From assembly GCA_044892505.1 (NCBI GenBank), contig CM097882.1:262446001-262510000 (forward strand): a stretch of DNA of 64,000 bases, in the 5' to 3' direction. Of the stretch, positions 55,361 to 64,000 are shown piece after piece. Position numbers and translations under genes: made by a program. Source of the DNA: Schmidtea nova. Taxonomy: Eukaryota. The first letter of the stretch is position 1; each line of letters begins with the position of its first letter. The notes under the pieces are model-generated. The model saw nothing but the letters and a program-made list of their open reading frames with translations. It searched no databases and had not been told where the DNA came from.

Positions 55361-56070
55361 TTAATACTATAACTCTTTGGATAAGCATAAGGGAACCCAA
55401 CACAAATAATGGTAAAATCAATACTGACACCTAATTCGTTTTTGGTTATTCGGTAAACATCATAAACGTAGCGTTGACAGAAAGTGCACAGAACTTCGTT
55501 TTAGTGTTCTGTAATCATGGCAGACATGACACCATTCCCTTATTTCTATTGTTTAATTTGATCACATTGTTTTTTACAATTTCAGAAACTCCTAAAAGAA
55601 GCTGCTGGGTTCATGGAGGGGTTAGATGAAAAATGTTCTAACAATGACTAGGGATCCCTCATCCATGATCATGCATAAAATTGCAATCTTACACTCAAGC
55701 GCCCTTGATTATTTCCCTATATAATCAAGTTGGTGATGCGCAGGGTGGTTAAACAATGATGGGCAGGTGAGCACTATCGCTAGTACTACTCCCCATTTAT
55801 GTTTACGGGTTCATAGCTGCCGTTAGAAGGACTTATGCTTTAATCATCTACTTATGTATTCCGCGTTAATCTTTCCGAAAATTTATTTTTATCATTGCTC
55901 AGTCTGCGAGAAGAATTTCATCGAATGCTCGCCTAATTATTTAATTATCTCTATTTGATATTTTGTAAAATGAATTTATACTTTTGTTCTATCTTTATCT
56001 AATCATTGGTAAAGTTAATTAAATCAATTTAAACGAACGATAAAATTCTTAAGTCAATACAACAATTTAT

Positions 56071-56667
56071 TTAATTTTTAATGAGTTCGGTAAAAACTCC
56101 CGCTGGAGGAAAAATCTCCGTCAATAATGCCTCCTCGGTCATCTGATGTAGACCATCGACTTGGCTTTGTAGTTGCTGGGCAAATAATTTTCTCTGTCTC
56201 CGCCGTTTCTGCCCAATACGCTTGCGTTTCTGGTGCGCATTTGCCGTTGAGGTGGTTGGATTTGCTGCAGGAGCCGGCTCATTTTGGTTTTCACTTAGAT
56301 CGGCGACATCCGTGCCAATGGAATTTACAGTCTTCTTTTCGGATGTCCAAGCTTGGTACGTAACCGGACGGATTTGCTCTCTGAGCTCTTTCTCAATATA
56401 TGAGGCAGTTACGGAATGGAGACATTTTCGGAGTTCTATCTTTGTAGCCTCCCATTCCATTTGATAATCGGCTGCAGTCCGCTGGGCGCGCTCGGTTTTA
56501 CTGATTTGCTCCTTCATTCGGGCCGGAGCAAACCAGCTTTTGCGCAAGTATGCGATCTGTGCCTCTGCTTTGATCAATTGTGCCTTGAGGAGACCCAATT
56601 CTTTATCCTGGGCTCTCCGAATCCGCCACATCTTTTCCAATTCTTTCTGCATCAAATCGGGGTTCAT
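56071..56667 (-). CDS. Cassette protein B: coiled-coil protein with basic C-terminal NLS-like stretch (198 aa)
   Basis: Intact ORF with TTATAG|A ATG acceptor and QKRKRIGQKRRRQRK; homologous to the relic at 38565-39005. Confidence 0.7.
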   Translation of the reverse strand: MNPDLMQKELEKMWRIRRAQDKELGLLKAQLIKAEAQIAYLRKSWFAPARMKEQISKTERAQRTAADYQMEWEATKIELRKCLHSVTASYIEKELREQIRPVTYQAWTSEKKTVNSIGTDVADLSENQNEPAPAANPTTSTANAHQKRKRIGQKRRRQRKLFAQQLQSQVDGLHQMTEEALLTEIFPPAGVFTELIKN

Positions 56668-56845
56668 TCTATAATTTATTTAGGATATTTACTCTATGAT
56701 TTAATTATATGAAAATTAAAATCTGATCATAGGATTATTAGGTCACGAAGGTGAACTATCAAAATGCGAAACAAAACTCAAAAAACAAAAATTCACTAAT
56801 GAACTATAATATTTTAATACAATTTCAACATTTGTTAATCAGTTT

Positions 56846-57325
56846 TCATCTCCGAAACAAACAATGCAATTCGTTGTTAATCGGTTTCTGACGCAGACGA
56901 GCCCAAGAGAATGAGGGTTGTCCTTTCTGGCACTCCTTGCCGAACGGTTTTCGTGGCAGGAATTTGTGCAGACCTAGTTGGCATAGCTCTCGACGAGGGA
57001 TATGCCCCCAATAAATTACACGGCTTGTCCGTCCATCTGTGTCCTTGATCAGTACGACAAGTCGGCCAAATTTGTTCGAGTACGGCCTTTGAGAAATCGG
57101 CCAGTTCGGTCCTCCTCGATAGAGTATTTGGTCGTTCCCTCCTGTCCATATTGAGAACGGGCATTTTCGGCCAAACCCATGTCGCCACTTATATATCTGG
57201 CAATTGAGGGTTCGCAATATCGATGCCGGTAGATCCTTGAGCTGTGAAATCTTTCCATTCTGTATATTCCTTTGTTCCACATTCCGTAGTTGAGTTAATT
57301 GATTCCTAGGTTCAGCTGTCGACAT
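56846..57325 (-). CDS. Cassette protein A: uncharacterised 159-aa protein
   Basis: Intact ORF with ATATAG|ATG acceptor; conserved with two divergent copies in the window. Confidence 0.7.
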   Translation of the reverse strand: MSTAEPRNQLTQLRNVEQRNIQNGKISQLKDLPASILRTLNCQIYKWRHGFGRKCPFSIWTGGNDQILYRGGPNWPISQRPYSNKFGRLVVLIKDTDGRTSRVIYWGHIPRRELCQLGLHKFLPRKPFGKECQKGQPSFSWARLRQKPINNELHCLFRR

Positions 57326-58337
57326 CTATATTACATTTATTGGATATAAAATATATGCGTTAAGGGGGAAATTCGTTGATAATTTAATTATACTGTATAT
57401 GATCACAAAAGTTACTTAAAAATAAGATTAATTTGATTTCTCTCCGCCGTGATCTACCACGGTCGGAATAAAGAGTTCATAATTAGTCCTGTGCTATATA
57501 CAGCATTCAGGAATTTTCAAATTTAATCAAGATTTCCGCGCTATATACAGCGGTCGGATTATAACTTGGGAACCGCGCCATATACGACGATCGGCCTATT
57601 TTTAGTAACTAATTTAATTTGGATTTTCCGACGCATTCCATCGCGATCGGAATTTATCGATATTAAAATTTTGTAGGCGAGATGCTGATTCCGAATGAAA
57701 TCGGACTTTGGACTACGTTGGATTTTCTCATTTCAGCGAAATTATTCAAATTTAATTTTATTTGTTGCTCACTGTTTTTCCATGCGAGAGGTTCCATTTC
57801 GATTCAATCGACAAAAATTTAAATGATGAGTATGCCCTACCATGGGGTGTCCCTCCTTATCAATCCGCCCTCCGCAATCTCCCTATTTGGCCCTCGACCT
57901 CCGTCCGTTGTGCAACCCAGAATTAAATAATTAGTAAATGGTCTGTACTAGACTCAAAATTCAATCAAATTTTCTAAATGAAATTCCACATCTAAACTAA
58001 ATAATAAAAAGGTTGAACCGCCATGTGAGACCCTGAGGCCCCACAACGACGACTCGGACTCCCTCGCCGCGTGAGCAGCATAGGAAGTATAGCTATATGC
58101 ATTAAAGTGTCAATAAAAATAATCAATGAAAAAAATAAAATGACGTTTACATATAAAATTCTAATTAAATAAAAATCATGGGTACATCATATAAGATAAC
58201 ATAAAAAATTACTTCCGTACTTGAATGTGTGGTTCCTTGTATGAAATTCGGTTCTTTCAAAAAATTACTCAAATCAAAGTTTAGTCTTGATTGTGAGTGA
58301 AAAGGTAAAACGTCTGTTGTTGTGATTTTTGGATCGG

Positions 58338-58372
58338 TATTTATACTGATCCGTCTGGTTGGATTGACCAAT
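58338..58372 (-). promoter_or_regulatory. CCAAT plus TATA promoter upstream of the two-gene cassette
   Basis: CTGATTGG (58368-58375) and TATAAATA (58338-58345) on the minus strand; candidate donors at about 58212-58220. Confidence 0.55.
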
Positions 58373-58927
58373 CAGGATCAGGCCGTCCTTCAAAGTATTT
58401 TTATTATTTTATTCTAATCTAAACATTATTTTGTTTCCTTTTCCGGTTTCTTGCTGGGTGGTCCTGATTTTTCAAATAATTAATTAATTATTTGCACTAT
58501 TATTTTATTTAATTCTATCTTTTCTTATTTCAGGCCCCCCTTTTGCGGTTGTTTACCGGTTTATTTTCAAAATTTCCTTTTACTGAAAATTTATCAATTA
58601 TTATTTGTCGTTTTATTGTTATTTTTAATTTGTTTTTCTTGCTGTTTTTATTTTTATTATTTCTTTATTGTTTCGTGCTTTTGTTCGTTTTGTTGTGTTT
58701 TTTAGGTGATTTGGCGGGCCCAACATCACCCGGGGACCCCTAAAATTGCGTCCCGCAATTAATTATACATAAATACTTATATTCATCATCCATAAAAAGT
58801 TTTATAAAGTTATACATGCAAAGAAAAATCACATAAGGTGATCGAATTTATACATATCATAAAGTTTGTCATTAAATAGTCAAAATGTAATGATTTGTCA
58901 CAATAGTTCGATAAGTTATCATAATGT

Positions 58928-59497
58928 TTATACAATTTGTTCGATCGTCTGGCTCGCTTGGGGTTGAGTTCGGGTCCTCTCGTTGATTATTTGTAGCTCG
59001 TAGTGGGTTTGGATGTGGTTGAGATGGCTCCTTATTCGTCTTTGAGCTCGGTTATCTCGTCTGGAGGTTTGGTTGTAGATTTTCTGCTTTTGTTTTAGGA
59101 TTTTTATTCTATATGAGGCAATTAGGATTGTGATTGCGATGATAGTTGTGCTGACTGCTAGGATTATGATGATTGCTATGATCCATTTTTCTTGATATTC
59201 TATTTCAGCTTGGGATAGGCTTTTTATGGGCTCTCTACCTTCTCTCAGGATTTTTCGGGTTTCCTTTAATTTCAGTTGTTGGTTACCGAAGATTTGTTGG
59301 ATTTGATGATCTTGATTGTAGGGGTATTTCTGTCGGAATTCGTTGATTTCTTTAATTACTTCTTCGATTAGGCTGTCTACTTTCTGGTAGATTCTGTCGG
59401 GTAGAACTCGTAATTGGGTTTCGGTTAGTTGTAGATCTTCTCTCTGTAAGGTAATGGTTGTTAACCATAGGAGTGTTGCTATTGCGAGCTTTCTCAT
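58928..59497 (-). CDS. Type I membrane protein (signal peptide, helical ectodomain, TM, basic tail; 189 aa)
   Basis: MRKLAIATLLWLTTITLQ signal; WIIAIIIILAVSTTIIAITILIASY TM followed by RIKILKQKQK. First ATG is 59497 (the track start is a GTG). Confidence 0.7.
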   Translation of the reverse strand: MRKLAIATLLWLTTITLQREDLQLTETQLRVLPDRIYQKVDSLIEEVIKEINEFRQKYPYNQDHQIQQIFGNQQLKLKETRKILREGREPIKSLSQAEIEYQEKWIIAIIIILAVSTTIIAITILIASYRIKILKQKQKIYNQTSRRDNRAQRRIRSHLNHIQTHYELQIINERTRTQPQASQTIEQIV

Positions 59498-59572
59498 CTC
59501 TTTTATACATCGGTCAATACAGCTTGACACTTTTTATTTTACAAAATTTATTTACACTTGGTTTTCGCACAT

Positions 59573-60634
59573 TTATACAAGGGTTTCGTTGGGTTCGTGA
59601 AAACCTTCGTCTTGAGGTTCCACCTGATTTATGGGGAGTGGCATCCATATTACCGTGCTCCTCCACATTTCGACTTCTTCTCGGTATGTGTGGGATATCT
59701 GGATCTCTTCATCTAATAAGTATTCCAGATAGTTCGCTTGTTCTGTTAGGGTTTCAATTTGTTTTTCTAGTTCTGCCAATTTTTTCTCTCTCTCTTCCTT
59801 CTCCATCATTTCGGTCACTGCTGCTGTGATACTTGTTTCTTTTATTGGTGTTGGTTTTTCTGCCAACTTCTTTCTCAGTTCTTCGTTTTCTTTTGTCAAA
59901 TTTGTTATGTTCTCTTCATAACTCTGCCTCGTTTCTTCCAGTCTTTCTTTAGTTCTTTTTAATTCTATTTTCTTCTGGGTGATCACTCCTTGATATCCAT
60001 TTATGTCTCTTTTCATGTTTTCTTCCTTGTGATTCCACATTCCGGTCAGCATACCTTTTAATTGTTCTTGATTGGCTAAATCTTCTCCCATTCTTCGTAC
60101 TTGATAAGTTAATTCTTTTATTTTCTTGGCTTGTTCTCTGATAAATTGTTGTCTTTTCTTACTCCATACTTTATTTGACGCTTCTTGACTGATCTTTTGT
60201 CCTAATTCCTCTTTTAATTCATCGATCTCTTTAAACAGTTTCCAATCATCGCTGTACACTGTTCGTTCTATTATCTCCCTTGCTTCCTTGTAAGAGTCTT
60301 TTGCCTCTTTCTTCCAATATCTTGCTTGTTCTGTGATTGACTGAATCTTATGGTCTGTTTTTATTTGTTGTCTATCCCTATCCTCTCGTCGCTCTTTCAT
60401 CATCTCTTTGTAGTATTCGTTTTGTTGTCTTAGCAGTTTGTAGACTTCTTCTATTTTTTCTCGACTTCTTTGATTCGTTTTCTCGGCTTCTCTTAGTGCT
60501 TCGGTTTGTCTTTCTAATTCCTCCTGTTTTCGATAATAGGCATGAATCCATCTCCCAATCCGCTCCATGTGATTTCTGATCATTTCGTCTTGATGTACGG
60601 TTACTTCTTGTAAGGTTACCTCTATATTTCCCAT
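59573..60634 (-). CDS. Long coiled-coil protein (353 aa, SMC/myosin-tail-like composition)
   Basis: Intact E/K/R/Q-rich heptad ORF with TTATAG|AA ATG acceptor. Confidence 0.75.
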   Translation of the reverse strand: MGNIEVTLQEVTVHQDEMIRNHMERIGRWIHAYYRKQEELERQTEALREAEKTNQRSREKIEEVYKLLRQQNEYYKEMMKERREDRDRQQIKTDHKIQSITEQARYWKKEAKDSYKEAREIIERTVYSDDWKLFKEIDELKEELGQKISQEASNKVWSKKRQQFIREQAKKIKELTYQVRRMGEDLANQEQLKGMLTGMWNHKEENMKRDINGYQGVITQKKIELKRTKERLEETRQSYEENITNLTKENEELRKKLAEKPTPIKETSITAAVTEMMEKEEREKKLAELEKQIETLTEQANYLEYLLDEEIQISHTYREEVEMWRSTVIWMPLPINQVEPQDEGFHEPNETLV

Positions 60635-60745
60635 TTCTATAATTACAGATAAAAAGAATATTTAATCAGTTTTTATTTTTATTGTTTTTGATTATTTGTT
60701 ATTTCATATTGTTTCTACATTTTATTTACATGGTTATTTCCTTCA

Positions 60746-62122
60746 TTACGCCAACCATCCTTTTTTATCCGTTTTCTCATGCCTCTCCATCTCTATGTAT
60801 AGCGTGTCTGCATATAGTCGCTCCCACAGGTTTTCCTTCCTTATAAACATTGGTTCTCCTGCTGCTAGTCCGCATTCCGTTGTTGGTTTTTCACTTGTAC
60901 TCGTATGTTTGTCTGTTTCAAAGAACTTTTCTACTGGTTTTACCATACTTTTGATTCTTATAATGACTCCTACTTTCAAGGGCCATTCTATTAGGTCATC
61001 GTATTCTCCTTTACATAGTGAGAAGAATATTGACACGTGTGTTCCTTGTCCTCTTCCGTCTCCATTTGGGTATACTTTCAATCTTATTTTAGCCCCGTTT
61101 TTCCATAAGTAAAATGGTGGGCTTATTACTGCTGTTTTCGTCATATTTCTGGCTTCTGCTAGTTTGTCTCTGAACTCTGTTACTTTCCATAGGTAAGGTG
61201 CGATTGGTAAGTCCCTTCTTTCGTCAATTTCTCGTATTAATTGATTATATTGTATTTTCATTCCTTTTCCTAATTCTTCTATGGCTATTATTTTCTTTTC
61301 CATTCTTTCGCGAGTTAGTTCAAACTGCTCTCTTGTTTCTAGTAGTAAACTCATCATTATCTTATGTGATTCTACTTCTTTTTCTAATTTCTGAATTGTC
61401 CGTTCCGTTTCTTTAGTCGTTTCGTTTGTCATTTCCACATGCATTAGTGCTGCTTCTTCTAGATGTTGTTGCATTGTTTTTCGCGTCCGCTTTTCCTTGC
61501 ATCCATGCTTGTTATATGGGCATTCTCTTGGCCTTTCGGTACATAGTTTCCAATGTTCATGTAATTTTATTTCTTCTGTTATTTCGCAATTGTTTGGACA
61601 TTTACTTACATATTGTCTGCATACTTTCTCCTCTGTTATATTCAAGTGTTCCTCTTCGATTTTTCTCCTCGTTTCTCGAGTTTCACAATACTCGCATGCG
61701 ATTTCTTCTTCTTTACATTCTTCCTTGTGTTGTTCTCTCTTCTTTAGAGTTATTGTCTGTTGGCATTTCTCGCATTCGGCTCTCTTTTCCTCGCATTTTT
61801 CCATATGGTTTTCCAGATTGCTTATTTGTCCTTGCCATGTACAAGGTGTATTTACGCACTCCGTTGTGGTGCTCATAATTTCTCTTTGGGTTGCTTTGTC
61901 CGTTCTAGTTTCGTCCAACACTATTCTTCCCTCTTTACATTCTGGACATGTTGTTATTCCTGTTGCCTCTAATTCTTGTATACATTTTGTACATATTCTA
62001 CATCCACATATCGTTTGTCTGGGTTCTCGCAATAAATTATTACATTTTCCGCATGTGAGTCTCTTGCTCCATTTTCTGTTTTCTAGTCTCAAAATTTCGA
62101 TTATTCGTTCTTCTCTGTCCAT
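60746..62122 (-). CDS. TRAF: TRAF2/3-like adaptor: RING, TRAF zinc fingers, coiled coil, MATH (458 aa, intronless, intact)
   Basis: CGKCNNLLREPRQTICGCRICTKC..CPEC RING; CVNTPCTWQGQISNLENHMEKC fingers; YLWKVTEF..SPPFY..KIRLKVYPNGDGRGQGTHVSIFF..KGEYDDLIEWP MATH. Confidence 0.95.
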   Translation of the reverse strand: MDREERIIEILRLENRKWSKRLTCGKCNNLLREPRQTICGCRICTKCIQELEATGITTCPECKEGRIVLDETRTDKATQREIMSTTTECVNTPCTWQGQISNLENHMEKCEEKRAECEKCQQTITLKKREQHKEECKEEEIACEYCETRETRRKIEEEHLNITEEKVCRQYVSKCPNNCEITEEIKLHEHWKLCTERPRECPYNKHGCKEKRTRKTMQQHLEEAALMHVEMTNETTKETERTIQKLEKEVESHKIMMSLLLETREQFELTRERMEKKIIAIEELGKGMKIQYNQLIREIDERRDLPIAPYLWKVTEFRDKLAEARNMTKTAVISPPFYLWKNGAKIRLKVYPNGDGRGQGTHVSIFFSLCKGEYDDLIEWPLKVGVIIRIKSMVKPVEKFFETDKHTSTSEKPTTECGLAAGEPMFIRKENLWERLYADTLYIEMERHEKTDKKGWLA

Positions 62123-62215
62123 TTTCTACAATAATATATACATTCGACTTGTCATTTATTTTTTGATTTTTCTTGTTTTTATTTTTACATATTTACAGTT
62201 TTCCGCTTTATTTAT

Positions 62216-62572
62216 CTATGGCTCATTCGTTGAATCTGGTTCCGCTTCGTTGTTTAATCTATTTATTACCCAACTCATCCATCCTTCTTCGGATCCTTCT
62301 CTTTCTCCTCGTGTTAAATGGTTTATTTCTATTGCTTGTCTTTGATTGGTGTTGCTTATCGTTTGATTTTCTCTGGTGAGTTCAGTTATCGCTCTTTGTT
62401 GTTCTTCTATTCTGTGTAATTGTTCAAAACAGTTGTTATAACTTTCTGATAATAACATTTGTCTTTCCGCTAATTGGTTCTGTAATGAGTTGACTGTTCG
62501 TACTAATAAATCACATTGTGCCTTCCATCTCATAGCCATAGTTATTTCAGTTGTTTCGTCCTGTTCGGTCAT
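62216..62572 (-). CDS. Short coiled-coil protein (118 aa)
   Basis: Intact ORF with ATTTAG|AA ATG acceptor and heptad pattern. Confidence 0.65.
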   Translation of the reverse strand: MTEQDETTEITMAMRWKAQCDLLVRTVNSLQNQLAERQMLLSESYNNCFEQLHRIEEQQRAITELTRENQTISNTNQRQAIEINHLTRGEREGSEEGWMSWVINRLNNEAEPDSTNEP

Positions 62573-62696
62573 TTCTAAATTATATACATCATTTACTTTG
62601 TTTTTCTAGCTTTTTACAATTTTTATAATATCGATACCCATACTATTACGGTAATGCTTTGTTATTTACACTATTATTTACAGTCATAATCCGCCC

Positions 62697-63998
62697 CTAT
62701 ACCATCATTATCGTCTTTTCCTCGTATCGTTCTTCGTCTTCTATTTGTTTCCAGAATTCTTTACCTTTCGTTCTTCTTTGGAATTCTTGCTGTATCTCTT
62801 CTGGTATTTCTATTCTTTGCTTCATAATTTTAATATCTGGCCATTGTATGGCTGTCGCTTTGTTTCTCTTTCTGTATCTCCAATATATTATTATGCTTGT
62901 CGTCATTATCCCATATGCTATTAATATTCCTATACTGATTAATCCTATTACTGTTTTTCCACGGTTTGTTGCTTTGATTTTATTCTGATTCGCTTTTATC
63001 TCATTTTGGGTTTGAGCCTCTGGCTTCTTCTCCTTCTGTACTTGATTCTTGACTTTGTTCATTACTTCTTGTGTAGACCAATGGCGGTTTAGTAGTTGTT
63101 TGAAGTTATTTTCTTTTGTTCGGTTTTCCACGTTTCCTGGTTCGATCTGTTGTTGTAGTTTCTCTGAGATCTGATATAATCCGCATTCTGGTTTTTCTGA
63201 ACCTTTTCTAGTGAAGGTACATATCGCGTATGTCTTATTTACTTCCATTTTCTTTAATTCGACTTTTTCCTTATTCCCTGTTTCTTTACAGTGGGTTAGC
63301 TTGTCTTCTTCCCCTTCTGGGTTATGCTTTGTCCAACATATTCCTTTAACTGTCTGATCGAGTCCTGTTAATGTCAGAGTTCTTTCTGTCTTTGTTAATT
63401 CTTCTTCATCGAATTTCAGTATCTCTCCTTTTTGGAATGTCTTGCAATGCTCTATTCCCTCTTGGATTCCTCTCTCCCAGATACATATACTTCCTTCTTC
63501 ATTCATTTGTATTTCTTGTATTTCGATTTCCTTGTTTGTTCGTGATTCGTCGCTTGTCTGAACTTGGTATTCCTTCCTTGGTTCGTTGTATGTTCCCCAG
63601 CATAGTTTGTTGCTACTTGTTTTCCTTATTGTTATGGCCATTTGTTCTATTATTATTCCTTTATCGATACGTTTGGACATTGCTAGTATTAATGCTATGC
63701 ATACGCACTCCTGTTGGGGTAATATTCTTTCTCTCGTTTTATTGGTGCTTTTCTCTCCTTCTCCTGGTTTATCCGTTGTGTTTCTTATCTGAGTTGCTGG
63801 TTGATCTATGGTGTTTTTGATTTCTTTCTTTGTTGGTTTTACTCTATACCATTCGAGTCCAGGCGTTTCGTATTTTTGACATACGACTGTCTTAGGTAGC
63901 CCCGACTTCTTTTCCTTTCCTATTATGCATATCCTATGTATGATTCCTCTGTCCATCCCTTCTATTCGTACTATATCCTGGTCGGATTTTCTGATTAT
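62697..63998 (-). CDS. Type I membrane glycoprotein with FN3-like Cys-containing repeats; open to the window edge
   Basis: Frame open upstream of 63956 (IIRKSDQDIVRIEG). VRIEGMDRGIIHRICI and VELKKMEVNKTYAICT resemble FN3 E-F strands; N-glycosylation sequons; TM VIGLISIGILIAYGIMTTSIIIYW then RYRKRNK. Confidence 0.7.
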   Translation of the reverse strand: MIRKSDQDIVRIEGMDRGIIHRICIIGKEKKSGLPKTVVCQKYETPGLEWYRVKPTKKEIKNTIDQPATQIRNTTDKPGEGEKSTNKTRERILPQQECVCIALILAMSKRIDKGIIIEQMAITIRKTSSNKLCWGTYNEPRKEYQVQTSDESRTNKEIEIQEIQMNEEGSICIWERGIQEGIEHCKTFQKGEILKFDEEELTKTERTLTLTGLDQTVKGICWTKHNPEGEEDKLTHCKETGNKEKVELKKMEVNKTYAICTFTRKGSEKPECGLYQISEKLQQQIEPGNVENRTKENNFKQLLNRHWSTQEVMNKVKNQVQKEKKPEAQTQNEIKANQNKIKATNRGKTVIGLISIGILIAYGIMTTSIIIYWRYRKRNKATAIQWPDIKIMKQRIEIPEEIQQEFQRRTKGKEFWKQIEDEERYEEKTIMMV

Positions 63999-64000
63999 AC

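Follow-up and report, generated by a model that had tools for sequence, protein, structure and literature searches.

The spacers between the accessory genes of a giant retrotransposon of Schmidtea nova are best regarded as conserved splice-site modules, the accessory open reading frames (ORFs) being expressed, with a probability of about 0.55, through subgenomic mRNAs cis-spliced from a short leader in the long terminal repeat (LTR). The extra proteins are thus likely to be made by alternative splicing rather than from a trans-spliced operon. The acceptor of the first spacer is used in cis in this family (family A), and in the related family E five spacer motifs act as donors at two acceptors; by comparison with the latter, the TGTA(A/T)A motifs of the present family are likely weak 5' donors of the form T^GTA(A/T), where ^ marks the joint. 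The window, i.e. the whole stretch of DNA analysed, comprises 64,000 nucleotides, and all the features located in it below are on its minus strand.

The four spacers belong to the 3' array of accessory genes in an env-gypsy element, so that the mobile element postulated in a preliminary description of this DNA can be identified as a 29.7-kb LTR retrotransposon. With LTRs of 3123 bp and an internal part of 23.5 kb, it falls slightly short of the 30 kb given in PMC6431247 (here and below, articles are cited for the portions of their text available). Its 3' LTR (55603..58725), with TG...CA ends and a 4-bp target duplication, is 99.84% identical to the 5' LTR (G000:C1:262528212-262531334). The C-terminus of a giant polyprotein, with a membrane-protein-like tail, occupies 62697..64000, and past the window, moving upstream, follow ankyrin, IN, RH, RT, PR, fusion glycoprotein and gag parts (Pfam order). 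Three in-frame stops and a frame change disrupt the polyprotein of the present copy; in four of six other copies it is a single frame of 5,663-5,682 codons, which rules out the stops being programmed. Pfam matches show MATH/TRAF, ankyrin and RING cargo, and no BIR or BCL2-like match in the present element, BIR being found in family E. By size, polyprotein order and cargo the element is a Burro-like giant gypsy, likened to Burro by description. A protein search for homologous elements in other species returned only distant host TRAFs (24-36% identity). The element TRAFs form a clade of their own in a tree, which rules out the derivation of the junction grammar from host TRAF genes.

The array consists of four ORFs: one of 118 aa, coiled-coil-like (62216..62572), with homologues in families B (48%) and E; a 458-aa TRAF with RING, TRAF zinc finger and MATH domains (60746..62122); a 353-aa coiled coil (59573..60634), with homologues in B (51%) and E; and a 189-aa protein with hydrophobic segments (58928..59497). 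Two further ORFs lie within the LTR, one of 159 aa (56846..57325), with TAG immediately 5' of its ATG and a U-rich stretch past its stop, and one of 198 aa (56071..56667), with TAG 1 nt 5' of its ATG and an AATAAA overlapping its stop. The LTR promoter has a TATA box (58338..58345) with a CCAAT-like box upstream, kept in family B, and about 130 nt past the TATA box lies a candidate leader splice donor, GTAATT (58207..58212), present in every family A and B LTR inspected.

The spacers amount to 403 nt (124, 93, 111 and 75 nt), in agreement with the earlier estimate of about 400 nt. Spacer 1 (62573..62696), 3' of the polyprotein, contains the donor-like TGTAAATA at 62675-62682 and 62663-62670, TGTATATA at 62581-62588 and the acceptor AG at 62575-62576. 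Spacer 2 (62123..62215) has TGTAAATA at 62190-62197, TGTAAAAA at 62182-62189, TGTATATA at 62135-62142 and the acceptor at 62126-62127; spacer 3 (60635..60745) has TGTAAATA at 60723-60730, TGTAGAAA at 60712-60719 and the acceptor at 60637-60638. Spacer 4 (59498..59572) carries TGTAAATA at 59549-59556, TGTAAAAT at 59536-59543 and a weak acceptor at 59500-59501 or 59498-59499; of the 33 other copies with the start anchor located, 16 have it as a TAG. The preliminary description had placed seven UGUAHAUA matches here, with the motif 14-18 nt past four stops and an AG 0-3 nt before each next ATG; all seven occur, as TGTAWATA, at those minus-strand positions, the first motif lies 14, 18, 15 and 16 nt past the stops, and the AGs lie 2, 3, 2 and 0 nt before the ATGs. 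Its signal between every ORF is present at all four junctions, with the refinement that the ORF counted first there (from 62697 upward) is the C-terminal end of the giant polyprotein. A second TGTA follows each first motif at 8-13 nt. In two near-identical host paralogues a similar doublet is found at +11/+24.

Enrichment against shuffled spacers and conservation in homologous elements, both suggested as checks in that description, turned out as it had anticipated. The TGTAWATA motif occurs seven times in the 403 nt of spacer, never antisense and never in 20.4 kb of coding sense strand, and none of 3000 dinucleotide shuffles of the spacers reached seven (mean 0.32, max 4). Two diverged families, whose TRAF proteins are 52% and 37% identical, repeat the layout; across families the first motif lies 14-21 nt past the stop at 14 of 15 junctions and a YAG 0-7 nt 5' of the ATG at 13 of 15. 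The grammar is absent from families C and D (env-gypsy elements of 16-17 kb). Among 30 copies column variation was lowest in the motif (0.0036, against 0.028 in other spacer positions and 0.043-0.071 at four-fold sites). Upstream ATGs, present within 13 of 14 regular spacers, rule out scanning reinitiation on unspliced RNA and would be deleted by splicing to the acceptor; stops in the spacers and frames that differ between families rule out programmed readthrough.

The spliced status of the acceptors is recorded in natural genomic copies. In a family A copy at G000:C1:268.37 Mb, 3,598 nt are lost relative to the present copy, precisely as CAG^GTTATA...TTTAG^AAA ATG; the loss ends at acceptor 62575/62574, LTR sequence flanks both sides, and the joint has a 2-nt AG microhomology. 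This copy is the sole genome-wide match with foreign letters 5' of acceptor 1. In family E, a T is joined to the acceptor before a 515-aa ORF in 41 copies; 29 of the 30 examined end within a spacer motif, at T^GTA(A/T), distributed over motifs 1-4 as 3, 15, 10 and 1. At a second family E acceptor, seven of nine matches end at the first TGTAAATA, one ends at T^GTAGGA 4,093 nt upstream, and one is not an element copy. Altogether 36 of 39 probe-selected family E loci have their joint in a spacer motif, at T^GTA(A/T), a T followed by GT being present at only some 6% of the positions upstream (10% within the final 150 nt); the probes are blind to joints not ending in T. The seven family E joints were without microhomology. 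A 41-nt GT..AG loss is found 5' of the gag ATG in two of five family E copies, and exact GT..AG removal thus concerns acceptor 1 in family A and three acceptors in family E. These excisions indicate that the acceptors are cis-splice sites. In a tree, the spliced family E copies are dispersed among intact ones. Host introns (n=14) have equally A/T-rich acceptors and donors of the GTAAAT/GTAATT/GTATAA type.

Deletions without GT..AG ends are also numerous in copies of families A, B and E; they were excluded from the splicing counts. Spacer-motif excisions were found in none of 112 copies at family A acceptor 2 (with a filter that misses one donor), in none of 40 further copies, at family B acceptor 2 in none, and in none of 20 unselected family E copies; at family A acceptor 3 there were no T-joins. 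The result for the unselected family E copies means that the excision events are rare and could be leaks. The donor of one spacer was never joined to the acceptor of a later one (0 of 38 family E element copies examined), so the skipping of ORFs is unsupported. Leader-joined LTR copies were absent among 81 variant matches, 78 of which represent a one-base variant retaining GT; such genomic copies are not expected because the RNAs would lack the primer site. Four sequencing runs behaved as genomic DNA (unique flank ~10x, element >1000x) and held no informative joints.

A uniform stop-to-ATG gap of 16-27 nt would result at 14 junctions from excision from the first motif, and of the 38 joined copies of element origin that were examined, 36 combine the spacer's own donor with the nearest acceptor. 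These observations would suit mini-introns, whose removal would set each ATG 16-27 nt past the preceding stop for termination-reinitiation along one polycistronic mRNA. Such a mechanism is very unlikely: reinitiation has a low efficiency past long ORFs and a chain of such events over 4-7 ORFs would be needed, an ATG is left in the part of spacers A1, B1 and A4 that stays after excision, and the most used family E donors are motifs 2 and 3, not 1.

The preliminary description envisaged an operon-like polycistron expressed by coupled 3'-end formation and trans- or alternative splicing. As an operon, the polycistronic pre-mRNA would be cleaved and polyadenylated within each spacer and a spliced leader (SL) added in trans downstream, the UGUA serving as a CFIm enhancer paired with an A-rich non-canonical signal. 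The AGs proved to be genuine splice acceptors, but SL trans-splicing is unsupported, the fossil products being cis; coupled 3'-end formation did not find support either, and the TGTA motifs, instead of being 3'-end signals, are themselves used as 5' donors in family E. AATAAA, the signal on which the poly(A) test was based and to which its reach is confined, is not enriched in the spacers of this family (8 seen, shuffle mean 4.8, 269 of 3000 shuffles reaching 8) or of family B (3 vs 2.9); it is missing from 5 of 15 spacers, is placed inconsistently, and the spacers are A-rich and without a U-rich flank. Planarian cleavage sites are described as U-rich, with no upstream UGUA (PMC5068929), and host 3' ends are U-rich as opposed to the A-rich spacers. 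The acceptors are used in cis with working donors 41-116 nt upstream, as seen in family E, while flatworm operon acceptors are reportedly strongly protected from cis-splicing (PMC12582326); moreover, 4-7 internal cleavage sites would be expected to reduce the full-length genomic RNA. Points that would agree with an operon are the spacer lengths of 73-244 nt, within the range of up to 300 nt given for flatworm operons (PMC12582326), the existence of SL trans-splicing in planarians (PMC10899757), the presence of CFIm25 and the absence of the motif past the last ORF. Trans-spliced or internally polyadenylated RNAs cannot become LTR copies, so the genome cannot reveal them; no poly(A)-tailed retrocopy was found at spacer 3, an anchor that had no positive-control count. 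The operon is on balance unlikely.

The U preceding GU is not accounted for by splicing alone, since 49 of the 60 GTAW sequences in spacers are preceded by a T, as against 64 of 256 in coding sequence, and 4 of 14 host introns have a T at donor position -1. This almost invariant U hints at a UGUA-binding protein. UGUAHAUA is the consensus of the Pumilio response element, and 12 of the 14 first motifs, at 14-21 nt from the stop, match it perfectly; none lies closer than 14 nt, i.e. all are beyond the ribosome footprint, while by contrast the AATAAA after the 5'/LTR ORFs may touch the stop. It is therefore possible, though less probable than splice modules, that leader cis-splicing occurs and that UGUAHAUA is mainly a PUF/Pumilio-type or CFIm25 site just outside the terminating ribosome, for instance a shield close to the stop that would protect from nonsense-mediated decay in the manner of the Rous sarcoma virus RSE, donor use in family E being a leak. 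All four TGTAWA motifs of one family E spacer served as donors, beyond the perfect 8-mer, and the second motifs are mostly UGUAHAAA, unlike the PUF 8-mer; the pattern is also missing from host 3' ends (1 of 30 GPCR loci), and PUF proteins are not known to have a protective role. A "ribosome shadow" (PMC4859803, PMC11529991), the precedent for a stop-proximal shield (PMC4764554), the CFIm25 gene carried by G000 and the planarian Pumilio cited in PMC8544814 speak for such a protein site.

DNA-level sites, forkhead-like (GTAAATA) or TATA-like, giving each ORF a small internal promoter, are highly improbable. GTAAA(C/T)A does occur five times in both the A and the B spacers, and env-gypsy families C and D carry a 396-nt TATA-containing spacer 5' of an extra ORF. 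Against this, the motifs are all on the sense strand and stop-anchored, their position 5 varies to T, upstream ATGs follow them, and the exact GT..AG losses are RNA-level events.

If the spacers are splice-site modules, each accessory ORF would be framed as an exon between its acceptor and the donors past its stop, with a common leader probably supplied by the LTR donor GTAATT, and the mode of expression would likely be splicing of the complex-retrovirus type. Weak donors may mark the upstream ORF as an exon and leave most genomic RNA unspliced. The exon junction complex sits 20-24 nt upstream of the junction (PMC8544814); a donor 15-22 nt past the stop would place it at or before the stop codon, so that the splice would not flag the mRNA for nonsense-mediated decay. 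The last ORF (58928..59497), with no TGTA motif 14-21 nt past its stop, would lack one because it is the terminal exon. A UGUA-binding protein (PUF or CFIm25) may in addition damp the donors. More speculatively, the modules may constitute a cassette code, in which captured genes slot between a standard acceptor and a dual-use UGUA donor cluster one ribosome-width past the stop, Pumilio or CFIm25, by covering the donors, switching according to cell type between the unspliced genome and spliced anti-apoptotic or immune-modulating mRNAs (TRAF, IAP), with no element-encoded Rev-like factor.

Planarian genomes abound in Burro-like elements, whose cargo includes apoptosis and ubiquitin genes; in the parts of the literature searched, no description was found of how their extra ORFs are expressed. 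For the Burro elements of S. mediterranea, RNA levels go up after RNAi of smedwi-2 (PMC8532177). The grammar gives exact junctions that can be checked in planarian RNA-seq or long reads and predicts the true start codons, one repeated splice module serving up to seven captured genes in a retroelement. The spliced genomic copies constitute a fossil record of RNA processing, and the fixed stop-to-donor spacing could serve as a natural test of whether nonsense-mediated decay in flatworms depends on exon junctions.

Among known systems, complex retroviruses such as HIV-1 and foamy viruses share with the element a single LTR promoter, weak splice sites, an acceptor ahead of each accessory ORF and the retention of unspliced RNA for packaging. 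Their accessory ORFs overlap, with weak donors before or inside the ORFs, whereas the present ORFs are non-overlapping and a putative donor cluster 14-21 nt past each internal stop is reused for unrelated captured genes. Burro/GYPSM1, the giant gypsy-like LTR elements known from dugesiid planarians (PMC6431247), are similar in their size of ~30 kb including LTRs, in a single 5,660-aa polyprotein that comprises gag, RT, RH, IN and ankyrin repeats, with a fusion glycoprotein in-frame between gag and protease, and in TRAF/MATH and RING cargo, plus BIR in family E; the available text of that article describes no splice or junction grammar. The present cargo differs in forming separate downstream ORFs, four in families A and B or seven in E, instead of lying in or upstream of the polyprotein, and in the two additional ORFs within the LTR. 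Operons of the C. elegans SL2 type and of flatworms likewise line up ORFs on one strand at intervals of about 100 nt, each ATG being preceded by an acceptor (PMC12582326), but the present family group has 5' donors in the spacers (working in family E), cis products and no consistent poly(A) signal. The RSE of Rous sarcoma virus is also a retroelement cis-element located directly past a stop with a long 3' region, being a pyrimidine-rich PTBP1 site of 400 nt that follows gag alone (PMC4764554), whereas the present element has an 8-nt motif pair past every internal stop, with donor activity in family E.

The four spacers, one ahead of each downstream accessory ORF, belong to a 29.7-kb giant gypsy element located on the minus strand and extending into the stretches adjoining the window (G000:C1:262446001-262510000); together with its copies it forms family A. 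Its LTRs, 3,123 bp each, are 99.84% identical to one another, the element ends are TG..CA, and there is a 4-bp target duplication. The Pfam domains come in the order zinc knuckle, viral fusion glycoprotein, protease, RT, RNase H, integrase, and ankyrin repeats, with a RING ORF 3' of the 5' LTR, and the downstream ORFs code for proteins of 118 aa, 458 aa (TRAF), 353 aa, and 189 aa. Three in-frame stops and a single change of frame interrupt the polyprotein of the window copy; an uninterrupted frame of 5,663-5,682 codons is found in four of six other copies, and the TRAF start anchor in at least 112 family A copies. Two related families with accessory ORF arrays were found by a MATH search (B) and a BIR search (E), and two smaller env-gypsy families are designated C and D.

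The preliminary description proposed a polycistron resolved by coupled 3'-end formation and trans- or alternative splicing, possibly under PUF control, from a junction grammar of TGTA motifs just after each stop and a splice acceptor AG just before each next ATG. The grammar itself stands: seven TGTAWATA matches (62675-62682, 62663-62670, 62581-62588, 62190-62197, 62135-62142, 60723-60730, and 59549-59556) and four AGs (next exon base at 62574, 62125, 60636, and about 59497) are in place in the window. The seven matches fall in 403 nt of spacer vs none in the 20.4-kb coding strand of the element, and none of 3000 dinucleotide shuffles of the spacers reaches seven. A second TGTA lies 8-13 nt beyond each first motif, that nearest the stop.

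The grammar recurs in families B and E. The accessory proteins of A and B show 35-52% identity and 62/136 four-fold sites are identical; gapped alignments, a method that favours A/T-rich DNA, give 72-84% identity for the spacers and 80% for the 3' UTR. Family E has an array of seven accessory ORFs, among them a TRAF (37% identical to that of A) and a BIR-RING gene for which A and B have no counterpart. In 15 junctions, from one copy per family (A, B, E), the first TGTAHA begins 14-21 nt past the stop in 14, where 2000 shuffles never gave more than 3, and YAG lies 0-7 nt 5' of the ATG in 13, where shuffles never gave more than 9, with the last spacer of E as the exception. No motif stands 14-21 nt past the stop of the final ORF in A, B, or E, or past the stops of the RING and LTR ORFs, and the grammar is absent from C and D; among host controls, TGTAWA 10-22 nt past the frame end occurs in 1/30 GPCR and 2/30 MATH loci, some of whose frame ends may be intron-side stops. 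Column variation in the window copy and 29 other A copies is 0.0036 in the motif, 0.028 in other spacer sequence, and 0.043-0.071 at four-fold sites. Judged by sequence comparison, the junction grammar is under selection.

Several other features of these families were observed. The primer-binding-site position right 3' of the 5' LTR is identical over 23 nt in A and E and common to B (L010:8175-8200; L065; L096). The family A LTR contains two ORFs (window 56071-57325), with TAG just 5' of each ATG and stops followed by U-rich or AATAAA sequence, and the family B LTR also holds two, but different ones; the LTR ORFs suggest a long U5 or R with its own terminal exons. DNA contig depth, summed as a rough measure, is at both LTR ends (window 55414-56027 and 57870-58483) several times that of the LTR middle, perhaps owing to solo or related LTRs. 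The 353-aa protein ends in NETLV (window 59573-59590), and E-T-x-V ends are also found in B (EETDV), E (EETFV), and the polyproteins of C and D (EETFV/DETFV; E-T-x-V loci L063, L085, L074, and L080), which resemble a class I PDZ-binding motif. In families C and D (16-17 kb; L073-L084) the fusion glycoprotein is part of a 3,400-aa polyprotein, and one extra ORF follows a TATA-containing 396-nt spacer. The inspected E copies have a short 1,036-aa gag-to-ankyrin ORF, often in tandem (L090-L098), and look non-autonomous, despite which the family gave 1,295 BIR candidates. An ORF cluster upstream of the element (1,408 aa, 406 aa, 347 aa, and a 207-aa P-loop protein; L011-L012), also present as an insertion in one E copy (L087-L088), resembles a Polinton/Maverick element. 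A large host TRAF/MATH gene cluster lies at L031-L060 (G000:C2:405-455 Mb); two host paralogues (L033, L035), which fall outside the element TRAF group, show TGTAAATA and then TGTAAA, at 11 and 24 nt past the stop.

Reverse-transcribed splice products are preserved in the genome. One family A copy, with LTR sequence on both flanks, aligns to the window copy from exactly 62574, next to the acceptor AG at 62575-62576, and is devoid of 3,598 nt between CAG|GTTATA in the polyprotein gene and TTTAG| at this acceptor; the joint shows a 2-nt AG microhomology. The donor GT is retained in all six A copies inspected, and the spliced copy is the sole genome-wide match with foreign letters 5' of the acceptor. 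The splice could yield a functional short isoform or reflect cryptic donor use. The donor (G000:C1:262512172, outside the window) lies just 5' of a hydrophobic, signal-like polyprotein segment, so the splice to 62575 drops the whole membrane-protein-like C-terminal part (about 1,150 aa). Among the family A and B copies searched, none showed excision from a spacer motif.

One spacer of family E has lost 105 or 81 nt in two of five copies, the loss running up to the acceptor from T|GTAAAG or T|GTATAC, and a 41-nt GT..AG piece 5' of the gag ATG is missing in two of five. Probes for a T joined to an E acceptor, which fix the T alone (a GT follows T at about 6% of upstream positions), gave 41 copies for that spacer; 29 of the 30 fetched end at T|GTA(A/T) of its four motifs (3, 15, 10, and 1), the remaining one, with an extra deletion, being left out of the count. 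Nine matches were found at a second E acceptor: in seven the joint falls at the first TGTAAATA, in one at T|GTAGGA 4,093 nt upstream, and the ninth is no element copy. Microhomology was found in none of the seven E joints. The spliced copies are interspersed among intact ones in a 1.2-kb tree (weak in places, L219 omitted), indicating several splice events. Spacer-motif excision was seen in 0/20 unselected E copies, and a donor of one spacer joined to the acceptor of a later one in 0/38 joined element copies.

Fourteen host introns have A/T-rich acceptors without a pyrimidine tract, of the same kind as those of the elements, and donors including GTAAAT, GTAATT, and GTATAA. The exact excisions in A and E copies, together with this likeness, show the AGs before the accessory ORFs to be cis acceptors (the one at 62575-62576 in family A; two such acceptors in E), and the TGTA motifs, including the UGUAHAUA formerly read as a PUF element, act as 5' splice donors, at least in E. 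The operon model, with poly(A) cleavage in the spacers and SL trans-splicing, loses weight because the acceptors have working donors next to them, and PMC12582326 reports that cis-splicing is strongly prevented at the acceptors of flatworm operons. It is further weakened in that AATAAA is not enriched in the spacers, no consistent poly(A) signal occurs there, and planarian poly(A) sites reportedly have no UGUA signal (PMC5068929). The model is unlikely rather than refuted, as its products would not be preserved in the genome, and trans-splicing occurs in planarians (PMC10899757).

Under cis-splicing, a short LTR leader would be joined to each acceptor, removing upstream ATGs, which are present in 13 of 14 regular spacers. 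A candidate leader donor, GTAATT, lies 100-140 nt past a conserved TATA box in the A and B LTRs; no copies joined at it were found among 81 variant LTR matches, and none are expected, because RNAs spliced from GTAATT into the internal region lose the primer site. Weak donors past each stop would frame the ORF as an exon and leave most genomes unspliced. The exon junction complex is placed 20-24 nt upstream of a junction (PMC8544814); a junction 15-22 nt past the stop would seat it on the stop codon or 5' of it, and the mRNA would then escape nonsense-mediated decay, if planarian decay uses that complex.

The main rival keeps the acceptors as cis sites and has UGUAHAUA serve as a predicted binding site for PUF or CFIm25 immediately beyond the reach of the terminating ribosome, a placement in line with the ribosome shadow and stop-proximal sites treated in PMC4859803, PMC11529991, and PMC4764554. 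The genome contains a well-conserved CFIm25 (CPSF5) gene (L135-L136; G000:C2:246839297-246840054), although PMC5068929 reports neither CFIm59/68 nor a UGUA signal at poly(A) sites in planarians. T precedes GTAW in 49/60 spacer cases vs 64/256 in coding sequence and 4/14 host donors, a preference for which splicing alone does not account. The donor and UGUA-protein-site readings can both hold.

The window element matches the Burro-like type of giant gypsy element known from planarians, from which it differs, as far as PMC6431247 describes that type, in carrying its cargo as separate ORFs in a downstream array; by this likeness the host group may be assigned. No description of the junction grammar was found in the literature searched, including the accessible parts of PMC6431247, PMC8532177, and PMC11410931. 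The arrangement is less exotic than a viral operon, but its grammar is real and conserved, has fossil splice products behind it, and lends itself to direct tests. The element type is of a known kind, and so is splicing to accessory ORFs, as in retroviruses.
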